The notes: generated by a model from the sequence alone, not told the origin. Shown: positions 10,799 through 41,214, counted from the first letter of the whole stretch. The stretch: DNA of 62,481 bases, filler included, from 11 parts of 11 records of this genome joined end to end with filler, not necessarily neighbours in it; one strand, 5' to 3'. Numbers and translations: made by a program.

Positions 10799-10897
10799 CA
10801 AAATATAAATAAAGATTCGGTGCTAACTCACCTCACTTCGGCCCAGTTCAGAGTGAGCATTCATAACGGAATTGATCGGGCACAGCACGTTCAAAGG

Positions 10898-13341
10898 ATG
10901 CAGCGCACCCTGGGAGCGCGCTCCAACTCGCCGGTGCCAGCGGCGTGTGCCCGCCGGCTAACGGGGCCTCCAGAGCTTACGGCCGTCGTCGGCCTCTGGC
11001 CCCCGGCCACGGGCCACCAGCGAGCCGCGGAAGCGCAGCAGACGCCGATCTGGCGAGGGCCAGTCGCGGCACAACGTGCTCGTGGCGATCCGGGTGCGGC
11101 CGCTGAGCGCCAAGGCACCTGCCCAGGACTGGCCTGGTCTGATGGCAGTGCAGGAGGCGGCTGTGGAGGACAGCGCGGATGGCCGGTGGACGTTTGATGA
11201 GCAGCGGATCGTGCAGGCAGCAAGGGACCGGGGGCTGCGCCGAGCGGCCGGGCAGGAGACGCCGACTAGCGACCAGGTGTACCATTTCGATCGGATCTTC
11301 CCGCCGTCGGTGCCTGCCCGGCCGGGGGCGGAGCCGGGAGCCAGGGGTTGCAGGCCTCGACCAATTCGATTTATCTGTCGATGGCCAGGGATATCGTGCA
11401 CGCCGCGGTGGTGAACGGGTACAATGGCTGCGTGCTGGCGTACGGGCAGGTACAGGCCCGGCTGCGTGCTGCGGGTGAGCCGGGTGCAGACCGCCAGTGG
11501 CAAGACGTTCACAATGCTTGGGGAGGGCAAACACCTTGGGATTACGCCGCTCGCTATCAAAGATGTGTTCGCACACATAGCCAAGGTGCCGGGCGCCGGC
11601 GGGGCTGGGCGAGCGACGGCAGGTGACTGACCGGAAGTTCACGGTGCGTGCGAGTTACATTGAGATTTACAACGAGGAGATGCATGACCTCCTGACCGAG
11701 GGCGATCATGTCAAAGGCTCAGTCAAGCTACGGGGCGGCTCGGTGCCCGGGCCTGCCAGGCCGGCTGATGGCGGGCAGGACATTGTGTTTATCGAGGGTC
11801 TGGCCGAGATCGAGATCAGCACAGTGCGGCAGGCGCTTTCTCTGATTGTCCAAGGCGAGGAGCGTCGAAAGGTGGCGGCTACAAACTGGAACGATCACTC
11901 CTCGCGCTCGCACACGCTCTTCCGATTGGCGATCGAGTCGACATCGGCCACTCAGGTGTGGTAGAGTCCAGCTGGCTGGGCTGAACGAGCGTGCAGGTGA
12001 TCAGCTCGGTCTTGTATCTAGTCGACTTGGCAGGATCCGAATGCATCGGCCAGCTAGGCGACGCCACCCGCCGGTCCGAGTGCCGGCTGATCAACCGGTC
12101 GCTCCACGCGCTCGGGCGCGTGATCTTGTCGCTCGCACGGCCGTTTGAGCCGGCGGCGCACGTGCCGTTTCGAGACTCCAAGCTGACTCGAATACTGCAG
12201 GTGAGAGTGCGGGCCAGGCAGAGGCTTACCGGGGGGGCAGCCGGCGCTCGGCGGGAACTGCCGGACACTGATTGTGTGCACGATCAACCCGGCCTACTGC
12301 CACGCTGACGAGACTGTGAACACGATACGGTTTGCGATGCGGGCGCAGCATGTGGAGCTGCAGCCCGAGATCAACCTGATCGTCGACCCGAATGAACTGG
12401 TCCAGCGCCAGGCAACTGCTCTCTTGTGCTGGCTCAATGCTGTGCGCAGGAGCTAGAGATACGAGAGCTCAAGAGGAGGCTCGCCCTGCAGCAGAACAGC
12501 AGCCAGCCGGGGGAGCTGCCCAGCCCGTCGCCCGGGCAGGCCGGTGCCCAACAACGGACAGCTGTGCTCGAGGGGGAGGTCAGGCAGCTCCGGACGCAGC
12601 TGGAGAGTGTTCAGATCTCAATAAACCGAGGCTCAGAACCGGACGGGCGGGCTGGTGCAAGTGAGCTGCAGACTGAGGAGGTCAAAATGCTCCAGCACAA
12701 GGTGCAGCGGCTGCGGGCCCGGGCGGCCCAGCAGCACAAGAGCTCGCAAGACTCGAAGCAGCGGATGACAAACCTGGAGGAGAAGGTTCGTGTGCTCAGC
12801 TCACGCGAGTCGGAGCCTCGCGAGGACAGCTCGGGGCAACGGGCGGACCTGGCGGCGGTGGTGTCGGCAGTGGAGGGCGGGGTGCAGGCCGATATCACGG
12901 ACGCGATCCTCTGGCTGGTGCTGGGTACGGGGATACAGATGGAACACGTGACGTCGACAGGCCAGCGGCGGCCAGTGATCATGCGCTTGTCACCGGCTCA
13001 CGACGCCATAGGATATGGCTACCCGAGCCAGGGGGGGGGCTAGGAGCATCGAGACGTGGCACTCGGTGAAGACGGGCACAGTCAGTGAGCTGGTGGACGG
13101 CCAGTGCCGTGATGTGTTTGGAGGACAGCACACCGGGGCTCAAAGCCGGTCGTTCTCTGTGATCCACGCGAGTGGGTCGCTCGACATGACGGCGCCGAGC
13201 TCTGTCGCGTATGACCTCTGGGTCGAGGGGTTGGAGCGGATCTGCTCGTTGGAGATGACGGTCGAAGACGACGAAGGCCTAAGCCAATCCATCAGCCCCA
13301 GAGCGCGGCAGGAGCTCAATAAGAGTCTCGGCTATGAATAA
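10898..13341 (+). CDS. N-terminal kinesin motor (kinesin-7/CENP-E-like) with coiled coil and C-terminal PH-like domain
   Basis: VAIRVRP, YGQTASGKT P-loop, [22 protein letters not shown] and [14 protein letters not shown]; 10 inferred introns of 36-44 nt; apparent frameshift at G9 tract 13031-13039. Confidence 0.92.
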
Positions 13342-13560
13342 AAGGTTCTATTGTAGTGAAGGTGCCCACGCGTAGAGAGTTTGATCACAGTCATCGTCCA
13401 CCTAGGTGCGGGTCGCGTTAGAGTCGCGTAGCTGCGTGTCGCGTTGCATGCACTGCCGCGTTGCATGCGCTTCAGCCGCCGGCTGTCACGTCAGCGCAAG
13501 CAATATCGAAGATATAAATAGTCAATCAGCACCGGACAGGAGTGGTGGCAGCGCGGCGGG

Positions 13561-16500
13561 ATGGCGGAGCTGCTGAAGCGGTGGGTGAACGAGCTGGGGG
13601 TGACCCCGGTGGTGAACTTCGAGAAGGACCTGGCCAATGGGTTCATCTACGGCGAGATCCTGGCCCACCCCGCACACGACCTGCTCACTGCCGAGGCCTT
13701 CGCCGCCTTCATGTCCAGCGACTCCGCCGAGGCCAAGGCAGCCGGCTGGGCGGGCGGCGGGTGAGCCGGGGGCAGGTGACTAACTTCCAGCTGCTGGCCC
13801 CAGTGTTCCGCGACCTCGGGATCAAGTTCAGCTCGCTGAGCGCCAACCAGATTATGGCACGCCCGCCGGCCCCGCGGGGTGCCAGCCGGCGGGCAGGTCC
13901 GGAAGCAGGGGGTGGCACTGCGGCTGCTGCATCAGATCAAGCAGGCCCTTCAGACACTCCAGCAGAACGTCTTCTCCTCTTCGAATAAGGCCTCCTATCC
14001 TGGCTGCCAGCGCCGCCTCACCCAGGGCTGGCAGGTGCTGGATTTCGACCCGGCAGACACACAGACCCTGAACGAGGCAGGGTCGGTAGCCTATCTGTCC
14101 GGGTCCAAGACGCTGGGGAAAACCCGGTACGAGGATATCGAAAAGACCCGATTCGACGACCGGATGCGAAAGATGGTGCCAAACTCTTACGAGCAGAAGC
14201 TGACTGCGCACCTGAAACACTTCCAAGACCACGCAGAGAGCGTGGACGAGAAGAACCGGATCTTGCACGAGGAGGACATGATGCGCGAGTCCCAGGACAA
14301 GATCGACCGCAGGCAGGTGATGAGGGACAAATACCTGCAGAATAAACAATTCAACGCAGAGTGGCAGAGCCAGGGGCTGGCGATACACCGTCAGAACCAG
14401 CTCAACCGACGGGGTGAGGTCAAGCGAGAGATCGCCTTCGAGATGGCCCAAAGCCAGAATGTCGTTAACAGGGAGAGTCGCGGCAGGGCGAGCGCGCGTG
14501 AGATGGTCGTGGACAGCATTGACTCTTTCGAGACAACGCTTCGACGGCTGGGCAAACTGGAGACCGAGGCGCTGAGTGAGGAGACAATCCGCGAAAAGTG
14601 CAAAGCTCCGGAGACCACCGCGCTCGAGCGGATGCGCACAATTGAGCATTCGCTTGCCGACTTTGGAGACATGCAGTCGGCGGCCAACGCACACATCCGG
14701 ACGCTGAAGAAGAAGAAGGCCGAGGAGGACGCCTCGCGCAAGGAGCGGGATCAGCGGCGGCGGAAGGTGCTGCTCGACCAGCAGTCGGCCCAGAAGGAGC
14801 TGGAGGAGCGCCGGCGTGAGGAGATGTTGCTCGAGAAGCTATGCAGACAGTCGAGGGAGGAGCGTAAGCTAGCCGAGTCGCTCTGGGAGTGCCAATTGCA
14901 CAAGGACCTGATGCGCGAAAACCGCGTGTTCCGAGACAAGCAGGAGAAGGCCCAGGCCGCGCGCGACAAGCAACTGAAGCTCGAGGCTGAGAAGGCAATC
15001 AGGGCGCAGGCTTATGACGAATACCAACGGCAAGTCGCTGAGACCGTGCGGCGGCGCGACGAGTTCGAGGCCAAGCTGCAGGAGGAGAAGACGGCCAAGC
15101 ACGAGGCACTGGGTCTGGAGGTGATGGAGTCGGTTCTTGACCTGGTGGCGAGGATTGAGTTGCACAAGGAGAAGACTGACGGGCTCTGGCCGGATGAGGA
15201 GTACGTCGAGTGGTGCAACAGTCTGCAGGCGGGCCAGTCGCTCTGGCCGCCGCCGCCCGAGGAGCCGGACCCTGCCGAGCTGGCCCGGATGGAGCAGGAG
15301 GCAGCAGATCTGCATGACCCCGTGAGGGTGGCAGACTCTAAGAGGCTGGACAACATGGAGTGGCTCCGTTACCTTTCGTGGACCGGTGTCTGGGGCTTCC
15401 AGCAAGAAGGCCAACCCAAGCCCGGCCAGACTGAGCCGCAGCCACCGCCGTGCGGGTCACAGAACCAGTTTCTGTGTGATGCGGTCCAGCAGCTTCAGCT
15501 GGCAATCGCGCCGGTGGTGCCCCAGCAAGCCCCGCCTGTGATGCCCAAATTCCCGATTCGTGCGTGCATCTTGGGCAAGCCGTATGCGGGGAAGTCGGCG
15601 CTAAGCATAGCAATGGAGCAAAAGCTCGGCTGCAAGCGACTGTCACCAGATGTGCTGGTGACCGAGGCCATTGATAGCTACAGGGCCGTGATTTTTGACG
15701 AGGACGTGGCGGAGAAGGTTGCGCAGGACAAGACACTGCAGCTGGGCAAGCAGGCCTTCGAGCAGCTGGCCGAAGGTCTCGGGGTGGATGATGCCACGAT
15801 TGTGGCGCTGCTGGTGCATGTGATTCAGATGCTGGACACGCAGATGAGCGAGGATGGCACAACACCAGTCGGATGGGTGCTGGACGGTTTCCCCTGCACC
15901 GTGCAGCAGGCCAAATTGTTTGAACAGAGTGCTTCCGGCTACGTGGAGCCCACGGAGCCCTCCAGTGCATTCTCTTCACAACTTGTGGCTGCGCAGGCAG
16001 GCTCCGAAGACAGCAGCCGTGAGTCGGTCAAGCCAGCCATTGGGATGGTGATTGTGCTGGAGATCGAGGACTTGGCCGTGGAGCGACGGGCTCATGGGCA
16101 CATGGTGGACATTGAGGACAACCTCCGCCGTTATCACCTATCTAGTGACCCTCCGGAGCTGGGTGAGAACAAGTTCCTCAATCTGGTGCCAGAGGAGAAC
16201 GAGTCGTCAGCCGACTTGCATATAGGGCCCAGGATGCGGTGCTATCAGGAGAACGAGCGGCCACTGCTCCAATTTTTTGGCGAATTTGGAGTGGTGGAAC
16301 GGATTGATGGGGCACCTAACCTGCCAGACGTGGAGCAGGTAGTGGAGGAGAAGCTGAAGGATCTGGAGTATCAGTTTAATGATCTCAAGGACAGGGAGTT
16401 CCGAACTCGCCCACCAACGGACCTGACCGGCTGGGGAGAGGACATCAAGGGGCCAGAGGTGGACCAAGAACTCAATGAGGAGGAGAGTACCAAGCTTAAG

Positions 16501-18120
16501 GAGCAACAAGTGGCCGAACTCTTGCTCACCCAGTGGATGGCAGTCGAGAAGGAGGTGACCTCAAAGAGCAAGGCCGTGTTCAGTGCAATCCGGGCAATTC
16601 GACAGAACGCGGTGGCGCACTATGCTGAGCTCAAGGAGGCGTTTGCCGAGTATCTGCATCGGCCAGACCAGCGAGCAATGGAGGCAGTTCGGTTCCAGGA
16701 TGGGTTTAATTCAATTGAGGAATGGATGCGTTCGGATGTCGAAGTCAAGCAGGAACTGCACTTGCGCGCGGACGAGCTGCAGGAGCGGCTTTGGGATGTA
16801 TCAGACCAGGCCAGGGCTGCCTCGGATGAGGAGCGGTACTCGTTGCTGGGCGACGGCTGGCTGCAGGATAAGTGTGCCGAGTGTACGTTCCAATTGACCA
16901 AGCTCATCCAGATGGAGGTGCTCCGGTACCAGGCCGCCAGCATGCTCCTTGAGACACGCGACATGTTTATCAAAACTGGCCAGCTGCCTGCCAAGATGGA
17001 CTTGCTCCAGCACACTCAACAATTGATTCAGTGTGAAGCGGTCTGGGAGCGGTTGATCCTCTACCCCGGTGCTCACTGTCTCACTCTTGTATGGCACTAC
17101 GCGGACGCCCTCATCAATCACAAAGTCGGTGCCGTCCAGCTGGATATCGTGTACCAGCATCTCCTCTGCCTCGATGGCTTCCCTCACAAGCTTGACAAGC
17201 CCAGTGGTGCTCGATACCTCACCCTTGTACCGGTCGTCCAACCACTTTAGCATGGACTCTCCAAGCTGCTCTGCTCGAGTGCGCAGTCCGCCAATCAACT
17301 CTTCGCCACGCACAAGGATGCTCTTCAGGCGGGCGCGGCACACCCTCACCTCAGCAACCAGCTCATCCTTGCAGTGCTCCTTCTCCTCCAGTGACTCCTC
17401 CGTCACTACGAGCTCCTCGCTCTGCTGGTGCATCGCCTGCAGACTGGAGAGCAGCTGCTGAAGATCTGGTACCACTGGCGCAGCTCCACCCTCCTCTGGC
17501 GCCGACTCACGCGGTGGAATGCCATCAGGGGGGACCACGAGCGCGTCTGTTAGGTCAAAGCCGAGCACGAGCATCTACTGCGTTGTGCTCCAGTCGGCTG
17601 CATACGAACCGAGGACTTCTGCTGGCTGCTCCGTCGGGTAGCAAATGACGGCTGCATCCCGTCCGAGTGGCTGCACGAGGATGAGCATCAGCTGGTCGCT
17701 GGGATCAACAAAGTTCTCAGCCGGGTCGACACTGGGGGCACTGGGGAGGTCAACTGGCGGGAGTTCTTGTTGGCCGCGGCGCTGCCTACGTACCCAACAG
17801 ACCAGGAGCTGCTTGACATGCGCCGGCTGTTTGATCAGGAGGATAGCGACAGTGATGGCCGGGCCACTATGGATGAGTATGGTAAAGTGCCGCTCTGGTT
17901 TGATAGCTCAGACCTTATGGACGAGAATCGCAAGCAGCAGTTGCGTGCGCTACTCTGGCCACTGTTTTCGGTGCCCGATCCGGCCACACCGGATGACGAT
18001 GGGCTGAGGCTATTTGACTACCTGGCCATGCTGTTGCACCTGAGTGCATCCAGTACCATCGAGGGTGGGGTCCGGCGAGCCTTCCGGACACTTGCCAATG
18101 GGGACGTGCCGATGCAGCGG
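13561..18120 (+). CDS. SPEF2: Sperm flagellar protein 2 / CPC1-like central-pair protein, with an internal inverted block; 3' end lost
   Basis: N-terminal CH domain (FEKDLANGFIYGEIL), long coiled coil, adenylate-kinase-like domain (GKPYAGKS, GWVLDGFP) and EF-hand region (VNWREFLL, VPLWF); three GC-AG introns at 13738-13775, 13857-13896 and 13990-14034. Confidence 0.85.
17008..17568 (-). other. Inverted internal SPEF2 coding block (187 codons)
   Basis: The minus strand encodes SPEF2-like WLDDRYKGEVSS...AIEAEE...LDGTDFVID; bounded by TGCTC (17003-17007) and GAGCA (17569-17573). Confidence 0.85.
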
Positions 18121-19417
18121 GAGGTGATCTTCCAGGAGACAGAAGACTTTTCGGAGACAGCAGTAGTTGAAGGGATTCGAGCCCAGTTTGTGCTCGACCT
18201 CGAGAACTTTAGGTGTCAACTGGAGGATATGATTAGGGCGGCGGCAGATACAGGTCCAGATGGTATCTCGACGATTTCTGCTCGAAAGGCTCGTGAAACG
18301 CTAAAGCTGCTCGACCCATTGAGAACACGAGAGGAGTGCCAACAGATAGTGGTGCAGATATTTGATGCTCCAGCACTTGAGGTGTTTGATGAGGACATAA
18401 TGGTCGACCGCGAAAGCGCAGGCTGACCAGCTTGCAATAGAGGACCTGCTGCAATTCCATCTAGAGCTTCTTTGGGGAAATCACGCTCCAGCACTCTAGC
18501 TTCTGGAAGGGTCACACGCTCCAGGTTGCGACCCATTTGCTTAAGCTGGTCGGCTTGATCATCCATCGTCTGCTGTAGCTTCTCCAGCTTGCTCAGCACA
18601 CACCCAGCCAGTGGGTCAGGCCCAATCACTGGCTCGAAAGTGAGGGACCGTACCATGTCACATATTTGGGCAGAGACGCCACGAAACGGACCGAGCTCCT
18701 CCGACATGTCACGGAGCGCAGTCAGACAAACATCGAGCTTCTCGGAGTCGCTAACGTCTCGAGCTGAAAGAGCCTGACTCAGCCGTACCTCAAATTTGAC
18801 AGCAGCTGAGCGGTAGCCGGGTTCTGCACTGGGTCGAAGCGCCGCCTGCCCGGGATATGCTATAGTCATTACACCCACGGCGAGTAGACACCTCTGTGAG
18901 GAAAGTGCTGCCTTTTGATGGGGTTGTCGCAGCAAGTTGATTGTCCATCTCCTGCACCAAGTCTATTCAACGTGCGATTCTTAACACTGTTAGTCTTGCC
19001 TGCTCGAAGGAGAGCGGTACGCAGCCGTCGAGCTGCTGCTCGAGGTGATCTAAACGGGCAGCGACCCGTTGCCTTCCGCCGCTGATCAGTTCCTGGCCTA
19101 TTAGATCAGTGTCACCGTTCGATCTCAAGCAGCTCGATCGGTGCACAGCCAACCAGCCCAGCTTCCATCGAGGCCGACCTGGCCACACAATCGGCCGGAG
19201 TATTCCAGGCTGTTGCAGCACCATTTGGTCACGTGGTCCCGAAAGCTCAGCATCTGCTCGCGCAGCGACGTCGACAGCCGACCTGCCCAGTGTCGATTAA
19301 ATGTCCACATACAGGTGGGCACCCAGCTGGGCGGCCGCCAGCCTGCACTCGCGCTTACTCCGCTTGTCCTTCCCAGTACTGCGGAATTCGGGCTTCTCTG
19401 GGCCTCTGATCGAGCAT
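18120..19417 (-). CDS. TSNAXIP1-like ciliary protein, rearranged: N-terminal part on minus, C-terminal piece on plus at ~18120-18420
   Basis: Minus strand gives EKLDVCLTALRDMSEELGPFRGV plus a coiled coil; plus strand gives IFQETEDFSETAVVEGIRAQF...LKLLDPLRTREE; the start codon is tentative. Confidence 0.5.
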
Positions 19418-33465: not shown

Positions 33466-35592
33466 CTAGTGCTTGGCTTGCTTAAGATGAGCCCACAGCC
33501 CGCTGTCCGACCGTTGCCGCTTCTTGCTCCGCCCTTGCCCTATCCGTTGCAAGTCCACCTGCCGCCCTGGCCTCAGGTCGCAGCCCGATCAGATGCTGCC
33601 TCGTCGTCTGGACTTATCATATCCCCCCGCACCATCAGCGCCGGCTCGCACTGGATCACTAACCCGAGCGCCGACACCGATCTGCCCCAGCATGAGCCCA
33701 GCCCGCCCCTGGCGCCGCACCTACTCAGCTTGCTCCCCCCTCTGAGCGCCGCCCGCAGCCGCAGATGCGCGAAAGCAAACGCCCGCCTGATCGCCTCCCA
33801 TCGGAACGAGGCGGCGCCCACGTCTCGGTCCGGGTTGTGCGGGTCCTCTAAACACAACCGGTCCGGCTTGTCTATATCTCTCCAGTGGCTCTTCGTCCGC
33901 TTTTGGAAGAAAAAGCCGCCGTTCCGAACAGATATCCCGACCTAATGGTCGAATCAGTGACTATTAGAAGGGCTGGAGGTGCCTGCTCGTAGTTGACTAG
34001 GTTGCCGTACGTCTGCAGGAACTCGAGAAGCGCCAGCCCCAGGCTCTGCTCAGCCGACTGCCGGAACCGGTCATGCCATGGCCAGGATTTTGACCGACCT
34101 CTCGGAAGCCTGCCCATCGTGGGTGCTGCTGCAGGTAAGAGACCACTAAGTTAGCCAGCACATAGCTCCCCACGCCGCCGGTGTACGTGTCGTCCAGCCC
34201 GCGCTGTTTGAGGAAGTATTTGAGCACTATCACCAGCGGCGGCATGGCGGGGAACTGCCGCACGTATCTGTGCATCATCTCCGTGTTCTCTATCCCCGAC
34301 GTCTCGTTGAACGCCACGTCGACCGCAATCTAACCACTCGATCAGCCGGGCCGGGCGGGCAGCGTCGCCTGGGTGGGCAGATCGACATACTTAATGATCG
34401 GTACGCGAGCCTTGTCTATCACTTGAATGTCCACCACCCAATCCATAAAATTCAACGCGTCCCCGAGAGCGTATATCACGCCCTCCTCGTTCGTCCCGGT
34501 CACAACCGTGTCAATATCAGACGAGAACAAGCTCAGCCCGGTCACGTGAGAGCCATAGATGTGCACCTGGGCGCCCTCCCATCGGCCCTGCACGTACGCC
34601 CGCAGCCGCGCAGCCGCTTGCTCGCGCATCGCTACCTCGGCAGCGGTTGGAGCAGTTAGCTTGCAGAACGCCACCACCTCGTCGTGCAGCGTCCGCTTGG
34701 TGTTCACCCGCCAGGAGGGCGACTCCATCAGCGACGCCCACGGCCAAGGACACGTATGCAGTTCGGCCTCCGCTTGCGCTCCTGCCTCTTCCTCTGCGCA
34801 CACTTCAGCGCTGCCAGCCAGCGGCTGGCACCCTCTTTCTCTGGCTCAGCCTGCGCGGCCGGCGCATCGAACGAGATAAAGTCATCTCCAAACAGCGCCC
34901 CGGCGCCTGTCGGCTTCGTGTCGGGCTGCTCCGCAGGCTGCCATTGGCTCGGTCCACCCTCGAAAAGCTCCTCTCTCTCAAGCGCATCCAGCCGCGCCTG
35001 CAGCGTGGGCCCGTCGTCCTCGCTGTCCGACCCCGGTGCCGCCTCCAGCTCCCCCATGCCAGCCGGCTCGGCAGCCACGGCCACCTGTCCGGCCGGCAGT
35101 CAGCCCTGGGCGAGCCGGGCGCCCAAACCGGGTCAGCTTTGTGCCCGGCCGTCGAGGGCTCCCACATGCCTTGCAGCTTTGTCCCCGGCTGTCCTGTCTG
35201 CCCACGCTCCACACATGCCTTGCAGTGGGCCTTCTTCCATCCCTTATTGGAGAAGCTTCGGCGTGTCAGCATCTGGAGGCACTGCCAGCATTCCTTCTCC
35301 GCATCCCAATCCTTGCCCTTCTGAGCATGCGGCTTGGTGCGCCCGCCCCCCAGCCCCGACTCGGCCCCGGCCTGCCACCAGGCCGCGATGGGCGGCCGAT
35401 CGGCCCAGGACGCACCTCCTCGTCCTGCTCCTCACCGTCGGCCTTCTCCTCAGCGCGGTTCTGCGCCCACTGCTTCCTCTCCTTGTTGCTCTGCCTGCTG
35501 GCTTTGTTCTTCTTGTTCGTGTTCTTCCTCGCCTCCTTCTTCCTCTGCGTCTTCTCCCGCCGCCGCAGCTCCGCGCTCTCAGATCGCGCCAT
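33466..35592 (-). CDS. Non-canonical poly(A) polymerase, TRF4/PAPD5 family
   Basis: LHDEVVAF, YGSHVTGLSLFSSDIDTVV, ARVPIIKY, LKYFLKQRGL, TGGVGSY and LEDPHNPDRDVGAASF; multiple short introns. Confidence 0.9.
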
Positions 35593-38687: not shown

Positions 38688-39592
38688 CTACTCGGAGCCT
38701 TGCGCTCCATCTTGAGTGTGTCTCGCCTGGCTCTGAGCGCTGCCCACATGTACCAGGCTCGGAATCTCGGCCCAAGCAGCTGCATCCGCTCGGCAACCTG
38801 TCCCAGCTAAATATACATTCGTGCTACCGGGCACCATCCGGCCAGCCGCCTTTGCCCTCTGCTCCTCCTCCTGGAGCACCTCCGAGACCCGCCGGACCGC
38901 CTCCCGTCGCGCCACCCGGGCCGCCAGCACTGCCGTCACCGCCACTCGCCATGCAGCCCACCCCCGCCAGAGCCGGCCAACAGCTGCAGGAAGCCTGCGG
39001 ATCCTCCACACCGCCCGTCTGCCCGCCGCCTCGCAACCAGCCTGGCAGGCGCAGCTCACCGGCGGCGCGCCCACAGGCTGCAGCTGCGCCGCATCGTCCG
39101 CCAAGCCGCCCGGAGCCTGCAGGGTGCCGATCGCTGCGGCCCTCGGGGAGCCCGCACCGACAGCGTTCGGGCTGCACAGCGGCCAGACGGCCCACCTTGC
39201 GCTGAGCCACGCATCGGCACCTGCTTCCTGGGCTGACCCAGGCGGCGGCAGGAGCGCACCAGGCGAGCAGCGCTCTGGTGAGCTGCAGCTGGGTCCGACC
39301 ACCGGTGCACCGCGGAGCCCGATCCAGCGCAACAGGCTCAGATGGGGCACTGGCCCGCGGGGCGGGTCGCTTCCCCGTGCCGAGTGCGTCCTGCGGCCGG
39401 TGGTCGGCCCAGGGGCGCGAGAGGCCCACCGCGAGACGGTCTGCTCTATCCAGGAGTCCGAGCAGATGCTGCCGGCGGCCGGCCGGCGGGGCGGGCCCCG
39501 GGTGGAGCACGATAGCTCCGGCCGGCTCGACCCGACGCTGCTTACGGGCTTTGAGGAATCGGCGCGCTACCTCCTTGGCGGCCGGACTATTC
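38688..39592 (-). CDS. Hypothetical spliced protein, divergent from the nitrile hydratase gene
   Basis: Helical segments such as LWRGWAAWR...VLQEEEQRAK; boundaries uncertain. Confidence 0.35.
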
Positions 39593-39675
39593 ATCTCAAA
39601 GAAGTTCGATCCGCAACGGACAATAACGGCTCTAGCGGCTTGGGGATGCCCAGTCCACGCGGTCCGCTGCTGCAT

Positions 39676-41214
39676 ATGGCCCGGTTAGTCGCACCCCGCA
39701 GGCCGCTGCGAATCAGCCGGGCGCTGGGGTCGGATCGTGGGGCTGGGAGCGAGGTGTGCTTCGACATCAGCACCTGGCACAAGGATGCCGTCGGCTATCA
39801 CGACATCGGCGGGAGTGCATCAGTGGCCCCGGTGCGGGCAGCCGGGGCCGACCGTGTCCACGCGCACTGGGAGCTGCGGATCCACGCGCTGGTCGGGCTG
39901 CTAGTCAGCCAGAAGCTGCTCACTGTGGACGAGCTGCGTCGAGGCATCGAAGGGCTGCGCCCGGCCGACGTGGCCCACATGTCCTACTACCACAAATGGG
40001 CTGCTTCAATTACTGTCATCCTGCTAGAACGGGGCATTCTCGGGCAGGCCGACGTCGTTGCGCGGCAGCTCGTGGCCGGCGGAGCGCAGGCTCGGTCTGA
40101 GTGGAGCGAGCCAACGGTCGAGTTTGAGGCTGGGCAAGCGGTGCGAGTGAAGACCGAGCGAGAGCTGCACAGCCCCCGGTGGAGACGGCCACACCTTCGC
40201 ACTCCTGGCTACATACACGGGGCTCGCGGCGTTGTCGAGCGTGTCTGTGGAGTGTTCGATTCACCCGAAGTGCTTGCGTTCGGAGGCAGCCACGGAGGCG
40301 CACAGCAACCACTTTACCGGGTGCGGTTCTCACAATCAGAGCTGTGGACTGAGGCCGCGTCTGTGGGCGGTAGCACTGACGCATTCCATGACACTGTGGA
40401 CGTGGAAGTTTATCAGCATTGGCTGGAGGGAATCTCGAGTACTCGTGTAGAGGCTAGTGTAGAGGCGAGCGGGTGTCAATCAAACCAAGCCAGGCACGAG
40501 CTCAGCGAGCACAGTCATGGGACGCGGGCAGAAGTTGAAGCGGCGGCTGTTGAGCTCGAGCAAGCCCAGATACTACCAGAGCCTGAGGTGGCGACTGCGC
40601 TTCTGGCAGCCTTGCTCGACGGAGGCATTGTTGAAGCGAGCAGCTTGGCCAGATCGGTCGAAGCTGTGGAACGGCTCGGGAGCCTGCAGCAGTCGGGGCA
40701 GCAACCGCCAGGCAGGGTGGGCGCAGCATTGGTGGCACGTGCCTGGCTCGACTCTGAGTTCAAAGGAAGGCTACTGGCTGATGCTAGCAGTGCGGCTGCC
40801 GAAATGGATCTGGCTGCCTCGAATGCTACTGCAGCGACTGTTCTAACAGCTGTCGAGAACACACATGAGGTGCATAACCTTGTTGTCTGCACTCTCTGCT
40901 CATGCTACCCACTGCCGATCCTTGGTTTATCACCAGCATGGTACAAAAGCGCGGCTTATCGGGCAAGAGCGGTTCGCGAGCCACGTCAGGTCCTGGCGGA
41001 GTTTGGAACAGTTCTGCCCAGCGGAATGCGAGTGCAAGTTCATGACAGCACAGCAGACCTACGCTACATGGTGCTTCCGAGACGGCCTGCAGGGACAGAA
41101 GGTATGAGCGAGCTCGAACTACGTGAGTTGGTCTCACGCGATGCGATGATTGGCGTGCGTGTGTGCGCCAAATTTGATACCTCAAAGTTACCTCAAAGTC
41201 GCGATTGTAGATAA
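39676..41214 (+). CDS. Fused beta-alpha cobalt-type nitrile hydratase
   Basis: Beta part: YHDIGG, WELR, DELRRGIE, YYHKW, HLRTPGYIHG and LYRVRF; alpha part: VARAW, LVVCTLCSCYP, WYKSAAYRARAVREPR, VHDSTADLRYMVLP; intronless. Confidence 0.95.
   Translation: MARLVAPRRPLRISRALGSDRGAGSEVCFDISTWHKDAVGYHDIGGSASVAPVRAAGADRVHAHWELRIHALVGLLVSQKLLTVDELRRGIEGLRPADVAHMSYYHKWAASITVILLERGILGQADVVARQLVAGGAQARSEWSEPTVEFEAGQAVRVKTERELHSPRWRRPHLRTPGYIHGARGVVERVCGVFDSPEVLAFGGSHGGAQQPLYRVRFSQSELWTEAASVGGSTDAFHDTVDVEVYQHWLEGISSTRVEASVEASGCQSNQARHELSEHSHGTRAEVEAAAVELEQAQILPEPEVATALLAALLDGGIVEASSLARSVEAVERLGSLQQSGQQPPGRVGAALVARAWLDSEFKGRLLADASSAAAEMDLAASNATAATVLTAVENTHEVHNLVVCTLCSCYPLPILGLSPAWYKSAAYRARAVREPRQVLAEFGTVLPSGMRVQVHDSTADLRYMVLPRRPAGTEGMSELELRELVSRDAMIGVRVCAKFDTSKLPQSRDCR

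Follow-up and report, generated by a model that had tools for sequence, protein, structure and literature searches.

The window analysed here is a stretch of 62,481 nt in which 11 contigs, each of about 52-63% G+C, are joined with N/TTAATTAATTAA linkers. Its second contig (10799-21719) carries a kinesin gene and a gene for SPEF2 (sperm flagellar 2/CPC1-like), and both genes are interrupted by introns of about 40 nt, a large share of which have GC-AG borders. These are very probably ordinary introns of the major (U2) type that lie close to the minimal workable length (40 ± 3 nt), with the high share of GC-AG borders resulting from GC pressure and being compensated at donor position +3. An original prediction, made from the sequence, had described 13 introns of this kind in the kinesin gene and SPEF2, with lengths of 36-45 nt and six GC donors. 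All 13, in the following called the core introns, were recovered at the same places by three-frame reading and scripted splicing, and the six GC donors as well as the four introns described as in frame and free of stop codons were confirmed (Table 1).

Table 1. Position of the kinesin and SPEF2 genes, of their introns and of two nucleotidyltransferase introns in the window
Feature	Position	Strand	Borders	Length (nt)	Remarks
Kinesin gene	10898..13341	+			11 exons and 10 introns; motor domain, coiled coil, C-terminal domain
Kinesin intron 1	10934..10973	+	GT-AG	40	Phase 0; CTAAC 12 nt from 3' end
Kinesin intron 2	11115..11153	+	GC-AG	39	In frame, stop-free; CTGAT 11 nt from 3' end
Kinesin intron 3	11217..11255	+	GC-AG	39	In frame, stop-free
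Kinesin intron 4	11310..11353	+	GT-AG	44	Frame-shifting; FPPS/ASTN junction gapless against homologues
Kinesin intron 5	11450..11489	+	GT-AG	40	Frame-shifting; inside P-loop
Kinesin intron 6	11586..11622	+	GT-AG	37	Frame-shifting; junction gapless against homologues
Kinesin intron 7	11743..11778	+	GT-AG	36	In frame, stop-free; CTGAT 10 nt from 3' end
Kinesin intron 8	11956..11996	+	GT-AG	41	Frame-shifting; sister strain differs at 11965, within the intron
Kinesin intron 9	12201..12240	+	GT-AG	40	Frame-shifting; LTRILQ/PALGGN junction gapless against homologues
Kinesin intron 10	12412..12449	+	GC-AG	38	Frame-shifting; without RNA cover
SPEF2 gene	13561..18234	+			Three 5' introns, then one long exon; 3' limit approximate
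SPEF2 intron 1	13738..13775	+	GC-AG	38	Phase 0; DSAEAK/VTNFQ gapless against 8 close relatives
SPEF2 intron 2	13857..13896	+	GC-AG	40	Phase 0; ANQIM/VRKQG gapless against relatives; skipped in RNA
SPEF2 intron 3	13990..14034	+	GC-AG	45	In frame, stop-free; SSSNK/VLDFDP gapless against relatives; skipped in RNA
Nucleotidyltransferase intron	34330..34368	-	GC-AG	39	Splits MTPAP-like_central at adjacent profile positions
Nucleotidyltransferase intron	33942..33982	-	GC-AG	41	Splits PAP_assoc at adjacent profile positions

Removal and placement of the introns

Two RNA runs (X3 and X4) and two DNA runs (X1 and X2) were compared with the second contig. A contig of 263 nt from poly(A) RNA (X3 record 13) covers 13774-13855, 13896-13987 and 14033-14119 of SPEF2, and its two joints skip 40 and 45 nt. 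The placement of the joints is ambiguous by 2 and 3 letters, respectively, and within this ambiguity only the GC..AG borders of 13857-13896 and 13990-14034 form a recognised pair. The original prediction had named transcripts retaining these segments, or using nearby GT donors, as what would refute it; the two segments are skipped in the RNA, and no GT-AG reading of either joint exists.

The identity of SPEF2 was established by the Pfam domains SPEF2_D5 and ADK and by a tblastn map of relatives. Full-length relatives (P0121-P0130) with 47-71% identity were found in environmental assemblies only, and nine long ones have 1433-1554 residues. They look like spliced transcripts, since nearly all sit on contigs of 4.6-4.9 kb. 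Alignment of the spliced N-terminus of SPEF2 with eight close relatives gave no gap at residues 59/60, 86/87 and 117/118. When the boundaries of the first SPEF2 intron were slid, only AG..GC or GG..CA resulted.

Two irregularities were observed further downstream in SPEF2. A segment of 557 bp (17010-17566) is inverted in the window: residues of about 1112-1305 of the relative P0121 match its minus strand, and an RNA contig (X4 record 19) joins 17010 on the minus strand to 17567 on the plus strand, opposing the orientation in the window. Most probably the segment is a chimera that arose in assembly or amplification; otherwise the inversion is real. The same RNA contig departs from the window after 18128, and its roughly 300 further letters match nothing on the SPEF2 contig; the alignment of P0121 stops at 18129 and that of P0123 continues to 18234. 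The divergence at 18128 could stem from differences between strains, from a chimera or from an alternative 3' end.

The spliced translation of the kinesin gene was open through the motor domain. Further downstream, a frameshift of one base in a run of nine G (13031-13039) breaks the kinesin frame in the window. In a DNA contig (X2 record 8) the run is shorter by one G, at 13031, so that the frame stays open to the stop codon at 13339-13341, and the difference is a homopolymer error or a strain difference. A metagenome scan gave 80 kinesin loci, none of them more than 58% identical in the query exon. They do not represent orthologues and were used as general kinesin references only. The best open reading frames among them, L016 and L001, were 43% and 41% identical to the kinesin protein. 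A search for orthologues with the tail exon returned fragments only (P0135-P0137), and a search with the motor segment at 'longer' lengths returned no match.

The six frame-shifting kinesin junctions, five GT and one GC, fit the general kinesin homologues. Gapless junctions were obtained at the P-loop, FPPS/ASTN, AHIAK/VTDRK and LTRILQ/PALGGN, and splicing of the fifth intron restored a P-loop string of 13 residues identical in L016. Removal of 12412-12449, the frame-shifting GC intron, gave a string of 21 residues that is gapless to the neck of L016 and L001 when the rows are read by eye; MAFFT itself put gap columns there. The sole GT alternative found by hand, 12400-12449, would delete four residues, and only the GC version retains the neck spacing of the two closest homologues, again with the rows read by eye.

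For the in-frame kinesin candidates, loop lengths and a sister strain were considered. Removal of 11115-11153 gives a typical spacing between RVRP and FD, and its retention an unusually long one. With 11743-11778 removed, the loop has one residue fewer than in L016; if the segment were kept, the loop would gain 12 residues, and L016, the closest homologue, has no insertion there. This fit of loop lengths in aligned sequences is supportive only. DNA contigs of the sister strain (X1) showed eight differences, five of them within introns. In X1 record 1 an extra C follows 11244 and A is replaced by C at 11222, both inside 11217-11255, and the GC donors at 11115 and 11217 are the same as in the window. 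The insertion of one nucleotide inside 11217-11255 excludes a coding read-through in the sister strain. A second indel is found inside 12201-12240, where one nucleotide is deleted at 12231 and A is replaced by G at 12216. The first intron, 10934-10973, was placed by hand, as it is needed to bring the frame of the ATG at 10898 into the motor frame, and is without RNA or homologue support.

Introns of the same type occur in a gene for a Cid1/TRF4-type nucleotidyltransferase on another contig (33559-35415, minus strand), in which seven introns of 38-44 nt were predicted, three of them GC-AG. Two of the GC-AG introns interrupt Pfam domains (Table 1). Upstream of 34330-34368 the exon matches MTPAP-like_central 1-113, ending two residues before the exon end, and the downstream exon matches positions 116-138 from its first residue (weak, E = 0.032). 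Upstream of 33942-33982 an exon of 25 residues matches PAP_assoc 1-20 (weak, E = 0.058), and the downstream exon matches positions 22-59 from residue 1. The matches of the short exons beside both introns are weak taken alone.

Signals and donor usage

The core introns measure 36, 37, 38, 38, 39, 39, 40, 40, 40, 40, 41, 44 and 45 nt. Together with 35 introns predicted elsewhere in the window, 48 introns were catalogued, with a mean length of 40.4 nt and a standard deviation of 2.6; the 35 predicted ones carry a length prior. All 13 core introns are in phase 0, which has a chance of about 1e-4 if half of introns were in phase 0, and the predicted set is distributed as 22/5/8 over phases 0/1/2. 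Lengths divisible by three were found in 11 of the 48 introns, no significant depletion (binomial p = 0.17), and all four such core introns are stop-free. The introns are richer in G+C (70.5%) than the long exons (57.6%). The C content falls from 42% in the first third of the introns to 23% in the last third. In the core introns this C-to-G gradient was not significant with the positions beside the splice sites excluded (p = 0.54). It was significant over all 48 introns (p = 0.005), but a bias in the predicted ones may contribute.

G at +1 and AG at the 3' end are present in 48 of 48 introns. On the exon side of the donor, G at -1 was found in 13 of 13 and A at -2 in 9 of 13 core introns (44 and 32 of 48 overall). 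The donor had been described as degenerate beyond +2. It is not: G occupies +3 in 27 of 35 GT donors, A occupies it in 9 of 13 GC donors and in only 3 of 35 GT donors (Fisher p = 7e-5), and C is preferred at +4 (28 of 48) and +5 (34 of 48). Among the donor triplets of the 48 introns, GTG was counted 27 times, GCA 9, GTA 3 and GCG 3 times. The proposal that splicing relies on intron length and exonic AG rather than on a strong donor is supported for the short AG/GYR 5' signal and the tight length, and not for the donor, which is structured beyond +2.

At the 3' end, all 13 core acceptors have C at -3, and G is present at -4 in 12 of them; 12 of 13 end in GCAG. The AG is followed by G in 10 of 13 (31 of 48 overall). 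A polypyrimidine tract is absent, as stated earlier, the region from -17 to -3 being 17% T and 43% G. The branch word, previously called loose, is positioned. In 24 of 48 introns the pattern [CG]TGA is found with the A at 8-20 nt from the 3' end, compared with a mean of 3.1 (maximum 8) after shuffling, and [CT]T[AG]A in 22 of 48, compared with 3.3 (maximum 8); the matches to the branch words all lie at 10-17 nt. For CTGA with the A at 10-15 nt from the 3' end the count was 19 of 48 introns (shuffled mean 1.4, maximum 5), and CTGA was found in 16 of the 35 predicted introns (shuffled mean 1.1). Judged by these patterns, a YTRAY-like word with a putative branch A is present near the 3' splice site.

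The choice of donor outside the two genes was studied with a gene finder built on codon bias, a prior on length and matrices for the acceptor and the donor, the donor matrix having +1 and +2 masked. For training, 12 of the 13 core introns were used, and predictions were counted only outside 10799-14100. With both flanks at 3 nats or more, a penalty of 11 gave 34 picks, with GT at 18, GC at 8 and the other 14 dinucleotides together at 8; a penalty of 13 gave 26 picks, with GT at 14, GC at 7 and the others together at 5. The pick at 35085-35122, a GC donor, is ambiguous and shares its acceptor with an alternative GT intron. GA donors accounted for 0-2 picks, at the background level of the other dinucleotides. 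The pattern [CG]TGA with the A at 10-15 nt from the 3' end, which the scan did not use, was found in 14 of 28 GT picks, 5 of 7 GC picks and 0 of 13 other picks (penalty 9). Its presence only in GT and GC picks separates real from false picks. A gene finder based on codon bias only was dropped, as it gave wrong boundaries and chained neighbouring genes.

The earlier estimate that about half of the donors are GC thus stands for the two genes (6 of 13). Outside them, GC made up 7-8 of 21-26 GT-or-GC picks in the masked scan, or roughly a quarter to a third. Three of the 7 introns of the nucleotidyltransferase gene have a GC donor, as do 7 of the 35 predicted introns and 13 of the 48 (27%) in the whole catalogue. 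The statement that the same pattern holds on most contigs agrees with the prediction of such introns on 7 of the 11 contigs.

Recognition of the introns and alternative explanations

These introns appear to be recognised through four short signals at fixed spacing. The first is the AG that closes the exon, and the second is a G-Y-R donor with C-rich positions behind it. The third is a branch word resembling CTGA, in which the A lies 10-15 nt before the 3' end, and the fourth is a G-rich GCAG/G acceptor that lacks a pyrimidine tract. Position +2 tolerates C. GC-biased mutation or gene conversion would change either the A at +3 into G or the T at +2 into C, and selection would remove the double change, so that GTA may be converted to GTG or GCA and only rarely to GCG; one weakened position in the donor pairing would be tolerated and two would not. 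If the branch A is set at about 12 nt from the 3' end, donor and branch are about 27 nt apart. A distance of about 27 nt is near the steric minimum, and the introns would presumably be defined across the intron. That the major spliceosome acts here on minimal introns is suggested by their uniform G...AG borders, by the fixed place of the branch word and by their removal from poly(A) RNA.

Several points weigh against ordinary U2-type introns shaped by GC pressure. The preference for C at +4 and +5 does not fit the usual pairing with U1 or U6 (GURAGU). The origin by GC pressure is proposed on the basis of one sample of 62 kb. A search of the window with Rfam gave no small nuclear RNA at the gathering or E ≤ 1 thresholds, with one chance-level match at E ≤ 1. 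The kinesin gene is without RNA cover in X3 and X4, which is not informative on its expression, so that 10 of the 13 core introns rest on frame, homology or strain comparison, and 12412-12449 has the frame-compatible GT alternative of 50 nt. Frame logic alone cannot separate the donors, every dinucleotide being solvable at 28-47 of 50 junctions, and a search by pattern only was not significant (GT pattern 20 and GC pattern 15, 12.6 expected for each). The 35 extra introns were predicted by a matrix trained on the introns of the original prediction, and the consensus and the spread of lengths are partly circular.

An explanation along the lines suggested earlier is an altered 5' end of U1, perhaps with changes in U6 or U2AF. 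Position +2 would then hardly count, and other contacts, intron length and exonic AG would define the donor. The canonical pairing regions are ACUUACCU at the 5' end of U1 and ACAGAGA in U6, and the canonical donor has G at +5 in nearly all eukaryotes. The donor consensus found here, AG/GYRCC with its frequent C at +4 and +5, the lack of a pyrimidine tract and a GC share far above the value of about 1% seen elsewhere speak for such a change. However, the coupling of GT with G and of GC with A at +3 is predicted by a conventional U1 partner, in which a Watson-Crick A at +3 makes up for the mismatch at +2, and the data therefore do not need an altered U1. The C at +4 and +5 may in turn reflect the C-rich 5' part of the introns. 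An altered U1 is accordingly regarded as unlikely, although the unexplained preference for C at +4 and +5 keeps the idea alive at modest odds.

A more far-reaching version is a co-evolved reader of the 5' splice site, in which the 5' end of U1, the U6 box or both pair with AG/GYRCC, +2 is near neutral and the G-rich 3' region is read without the classical contact between U2AF and pyrimidines. Such a distinct minimal splicing code is slightly more doubtful still. If the pairing region of U1 or U6 had changed, this would be a rare co-evolution of the RNA core of the spliceosome with its substrates.

The possibility that the GC donors are an annotation artefact, the true donors being nearby GT or the in-frame segments being coding and retained, was also considered. 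Three kinesin candidates are in frame and stop-free, 12412 has its GT alternative, and frame logic permits many solutions. Against this, the RNA contig rules out GT-AG for two GC introns, the proteins of relatives fix the three SPEF2 junctions to the residue, and Pfam continuity backs two more GC-AG introns in the nucleotidyltransferase gene. The indel of one nucleotide in the sister strain lies within 11217-11255, and GC is the second commonest pick of the masked scan and carries the branch word. The artefact is refuted for at least five GC-AG introns, and is very unlikely as a general explanation.

It is similarly improbable that the introns are introners, recently spread short mobile copies whose shared ends (GTGCC ... 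GGGCAG) reflect common descent. The ends are alike in many introns, and 11450-11489 and 13738-13775 share a near-identical 3' stretch of about 17 nt (local score 16). This stretch consists of the branch word GGTGAGCC and the acceptor, the interiors align with a mean local score of 5.97 compared with 5.54 after shuffling, seven pairs reach 12 or more compared with 0-5 in 20 shuffles, and no near-identical families were seen among the 48 introns, a small sample.

Nonconventional introns removed through pairing of their ends, of the euglenid/diplonemid type or like the hairpin introns of Amoebophrya, are the least credible explanation: some introns are able to pair close to their ends, 13857-13896 having a stem of 10 bp (positions 5-14 with 29-38), and the 5' GUGCC is complementary to GGCAC-like 3' ends, but the introns fold like dinucleotide shuffles (mean z -0.29, with 3 of 48 below -1.64), their borders are uniform in 48 of 48 and the branch word is positioned.

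U12-type introns were rejected. Their consensus is a donor of (A/G)TATCCTT and a branch of TCCTTAAC; the donors here are GTGCC- or GCACC-like, and 0 of 48 introns begin with [AG]TATCC.

Comparison with known introns and genomic setting

GC-AG introns make up about 1% in animals, plants and fungi, where they are removed by the U2-type spliceosome. The GC-AG introns of the window likewise begin with GC and end with AG, and the rest of their donor has a stronger consensus, by which the mismatch at +2 is offset. They differ in their share of 25-46%, in their length of about 40 nt, in having C at +4 and +5 instead of A and G, and in the lack of a pyrimidine tract. A GC-AG share of a quarter to a half is unusually high for introns of about 40 nt.

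According to PMC7072748, the GC content of splice sites rises with that of the genome. In bioRxiv 10.1101/2024.10.30.620910, the GC-rich pelagophytes Aureococcus and Pelagomonas are given with 14-17% GC-AG introns, ascribed to GC content, and with introns averaging 103-177 bp at 0.14-0.9 per gene. Pelagophytes are alike in being marine and GC-rich with a high GC-AG share, and the introns here differ in being about 40 nt, dense in some genes (10 in a gene of 2.4 kb) and of higher GC share. In Table 1 of PMC7789003, comparison genomes are listed with 25%, 52% and 74% introns of the GC-AG or GA-AG type and mean intron lengths of about 500-900 bp.

The host shares a trait with dinoflagellates, in which G after the acceptor AG is characteristic; the comparison genomes with 25-74% GC-AG or GA-AG introns are presumably core dinoflagellates. 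Introns of the dinoflagellate type, which use GA donors besides GC, were rejected, since in contrast to that type GA is not enriched here. Upstream TATAAATA-like boxes, present before both ATGs, are likewise unlike dinoflagellate gene organisation. Such boxes were found at 10804-10811 and 13513-13520, 94 and 48 nt 5' of the kinesin and SPEF2 start codons. AATAAA at 13337-13342 overlaps the kinesin stop codon, and the gap between the two genes is only 219 nt. The boxes, AATAAA and the short spacing show that the genome is compact and has conventional promoters.

Tiny and tightly sized introns are found in ciliates, chlorarachniophyte nucleomorphs and Blastocystis, where they are AT-rich and almost all GT-AG. 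The likeness lies in a narrow range of lengths close to the steric minimum, in short signals and in definition across the intron. The introns here, in contrast, have 70% G+C and many GC donors, and stop-free introns with lengths divisible by three are not depleted (4 of 13 core introns). No report of introns of about 40 nt with 70% G+C and a quarter to a half GC donors was found in the literature searched, most subscription journals and supplements lying outside its coverage.

Gene finders that assume GT-AG borders, a pyrimidine tract and introns longer than about 50 nt would mis-call most multi-exon genes of the host and its relatives, and relatives are present in marine metatranscriptomes. 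The lineage offers a natural test of how little 5' splice-site information suffices at minimal intron length, and the excess of GTG and GCA over GTA and GCG suggests a simple rule of mutation and selection.

The host is a marine flagellate with a compact, GC-rich nuclear genome. Two aquatic metagenomes contain DNA contigs 95-99% alike, and two RNA runs of marine origin contain RNA contigs. A protein atlas gave a weak lead to Endomyxa (score 0.86, with the phylum known for 2 members), which is given no weight here. Pfam searches of long open frames gave a eukaryotic gene set with a histone deacetylase, the flagellar SPEF2 and a fused nitrile hydratase, and further matches to an amine oxidase, ephrin-receptor-like repeats, a fatty-acid desaturase and a protein resembling polyunsaturated fatty acid (PUFA) synthase. 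The fused nitrile hydratase is encoded by an intron-less open frame at 38737-41211, in which beta N- and C-terminal domains are followed by the alpha chain. Its top database match is 56% identical, and named matches of 43-48% identity come from dinoflagellates, haptophytes, diatoms, a fungus and Thecamonas. The PUFA-synthase-like protein lies on the last contig (59159-62481), which has a lower G+C content (0.519) and a single long frame, free of introns, that encodes FabA, enoyl reductase (NMO) and FabD-insert domains. This contig may belong to another organism or carry a transferred gene.

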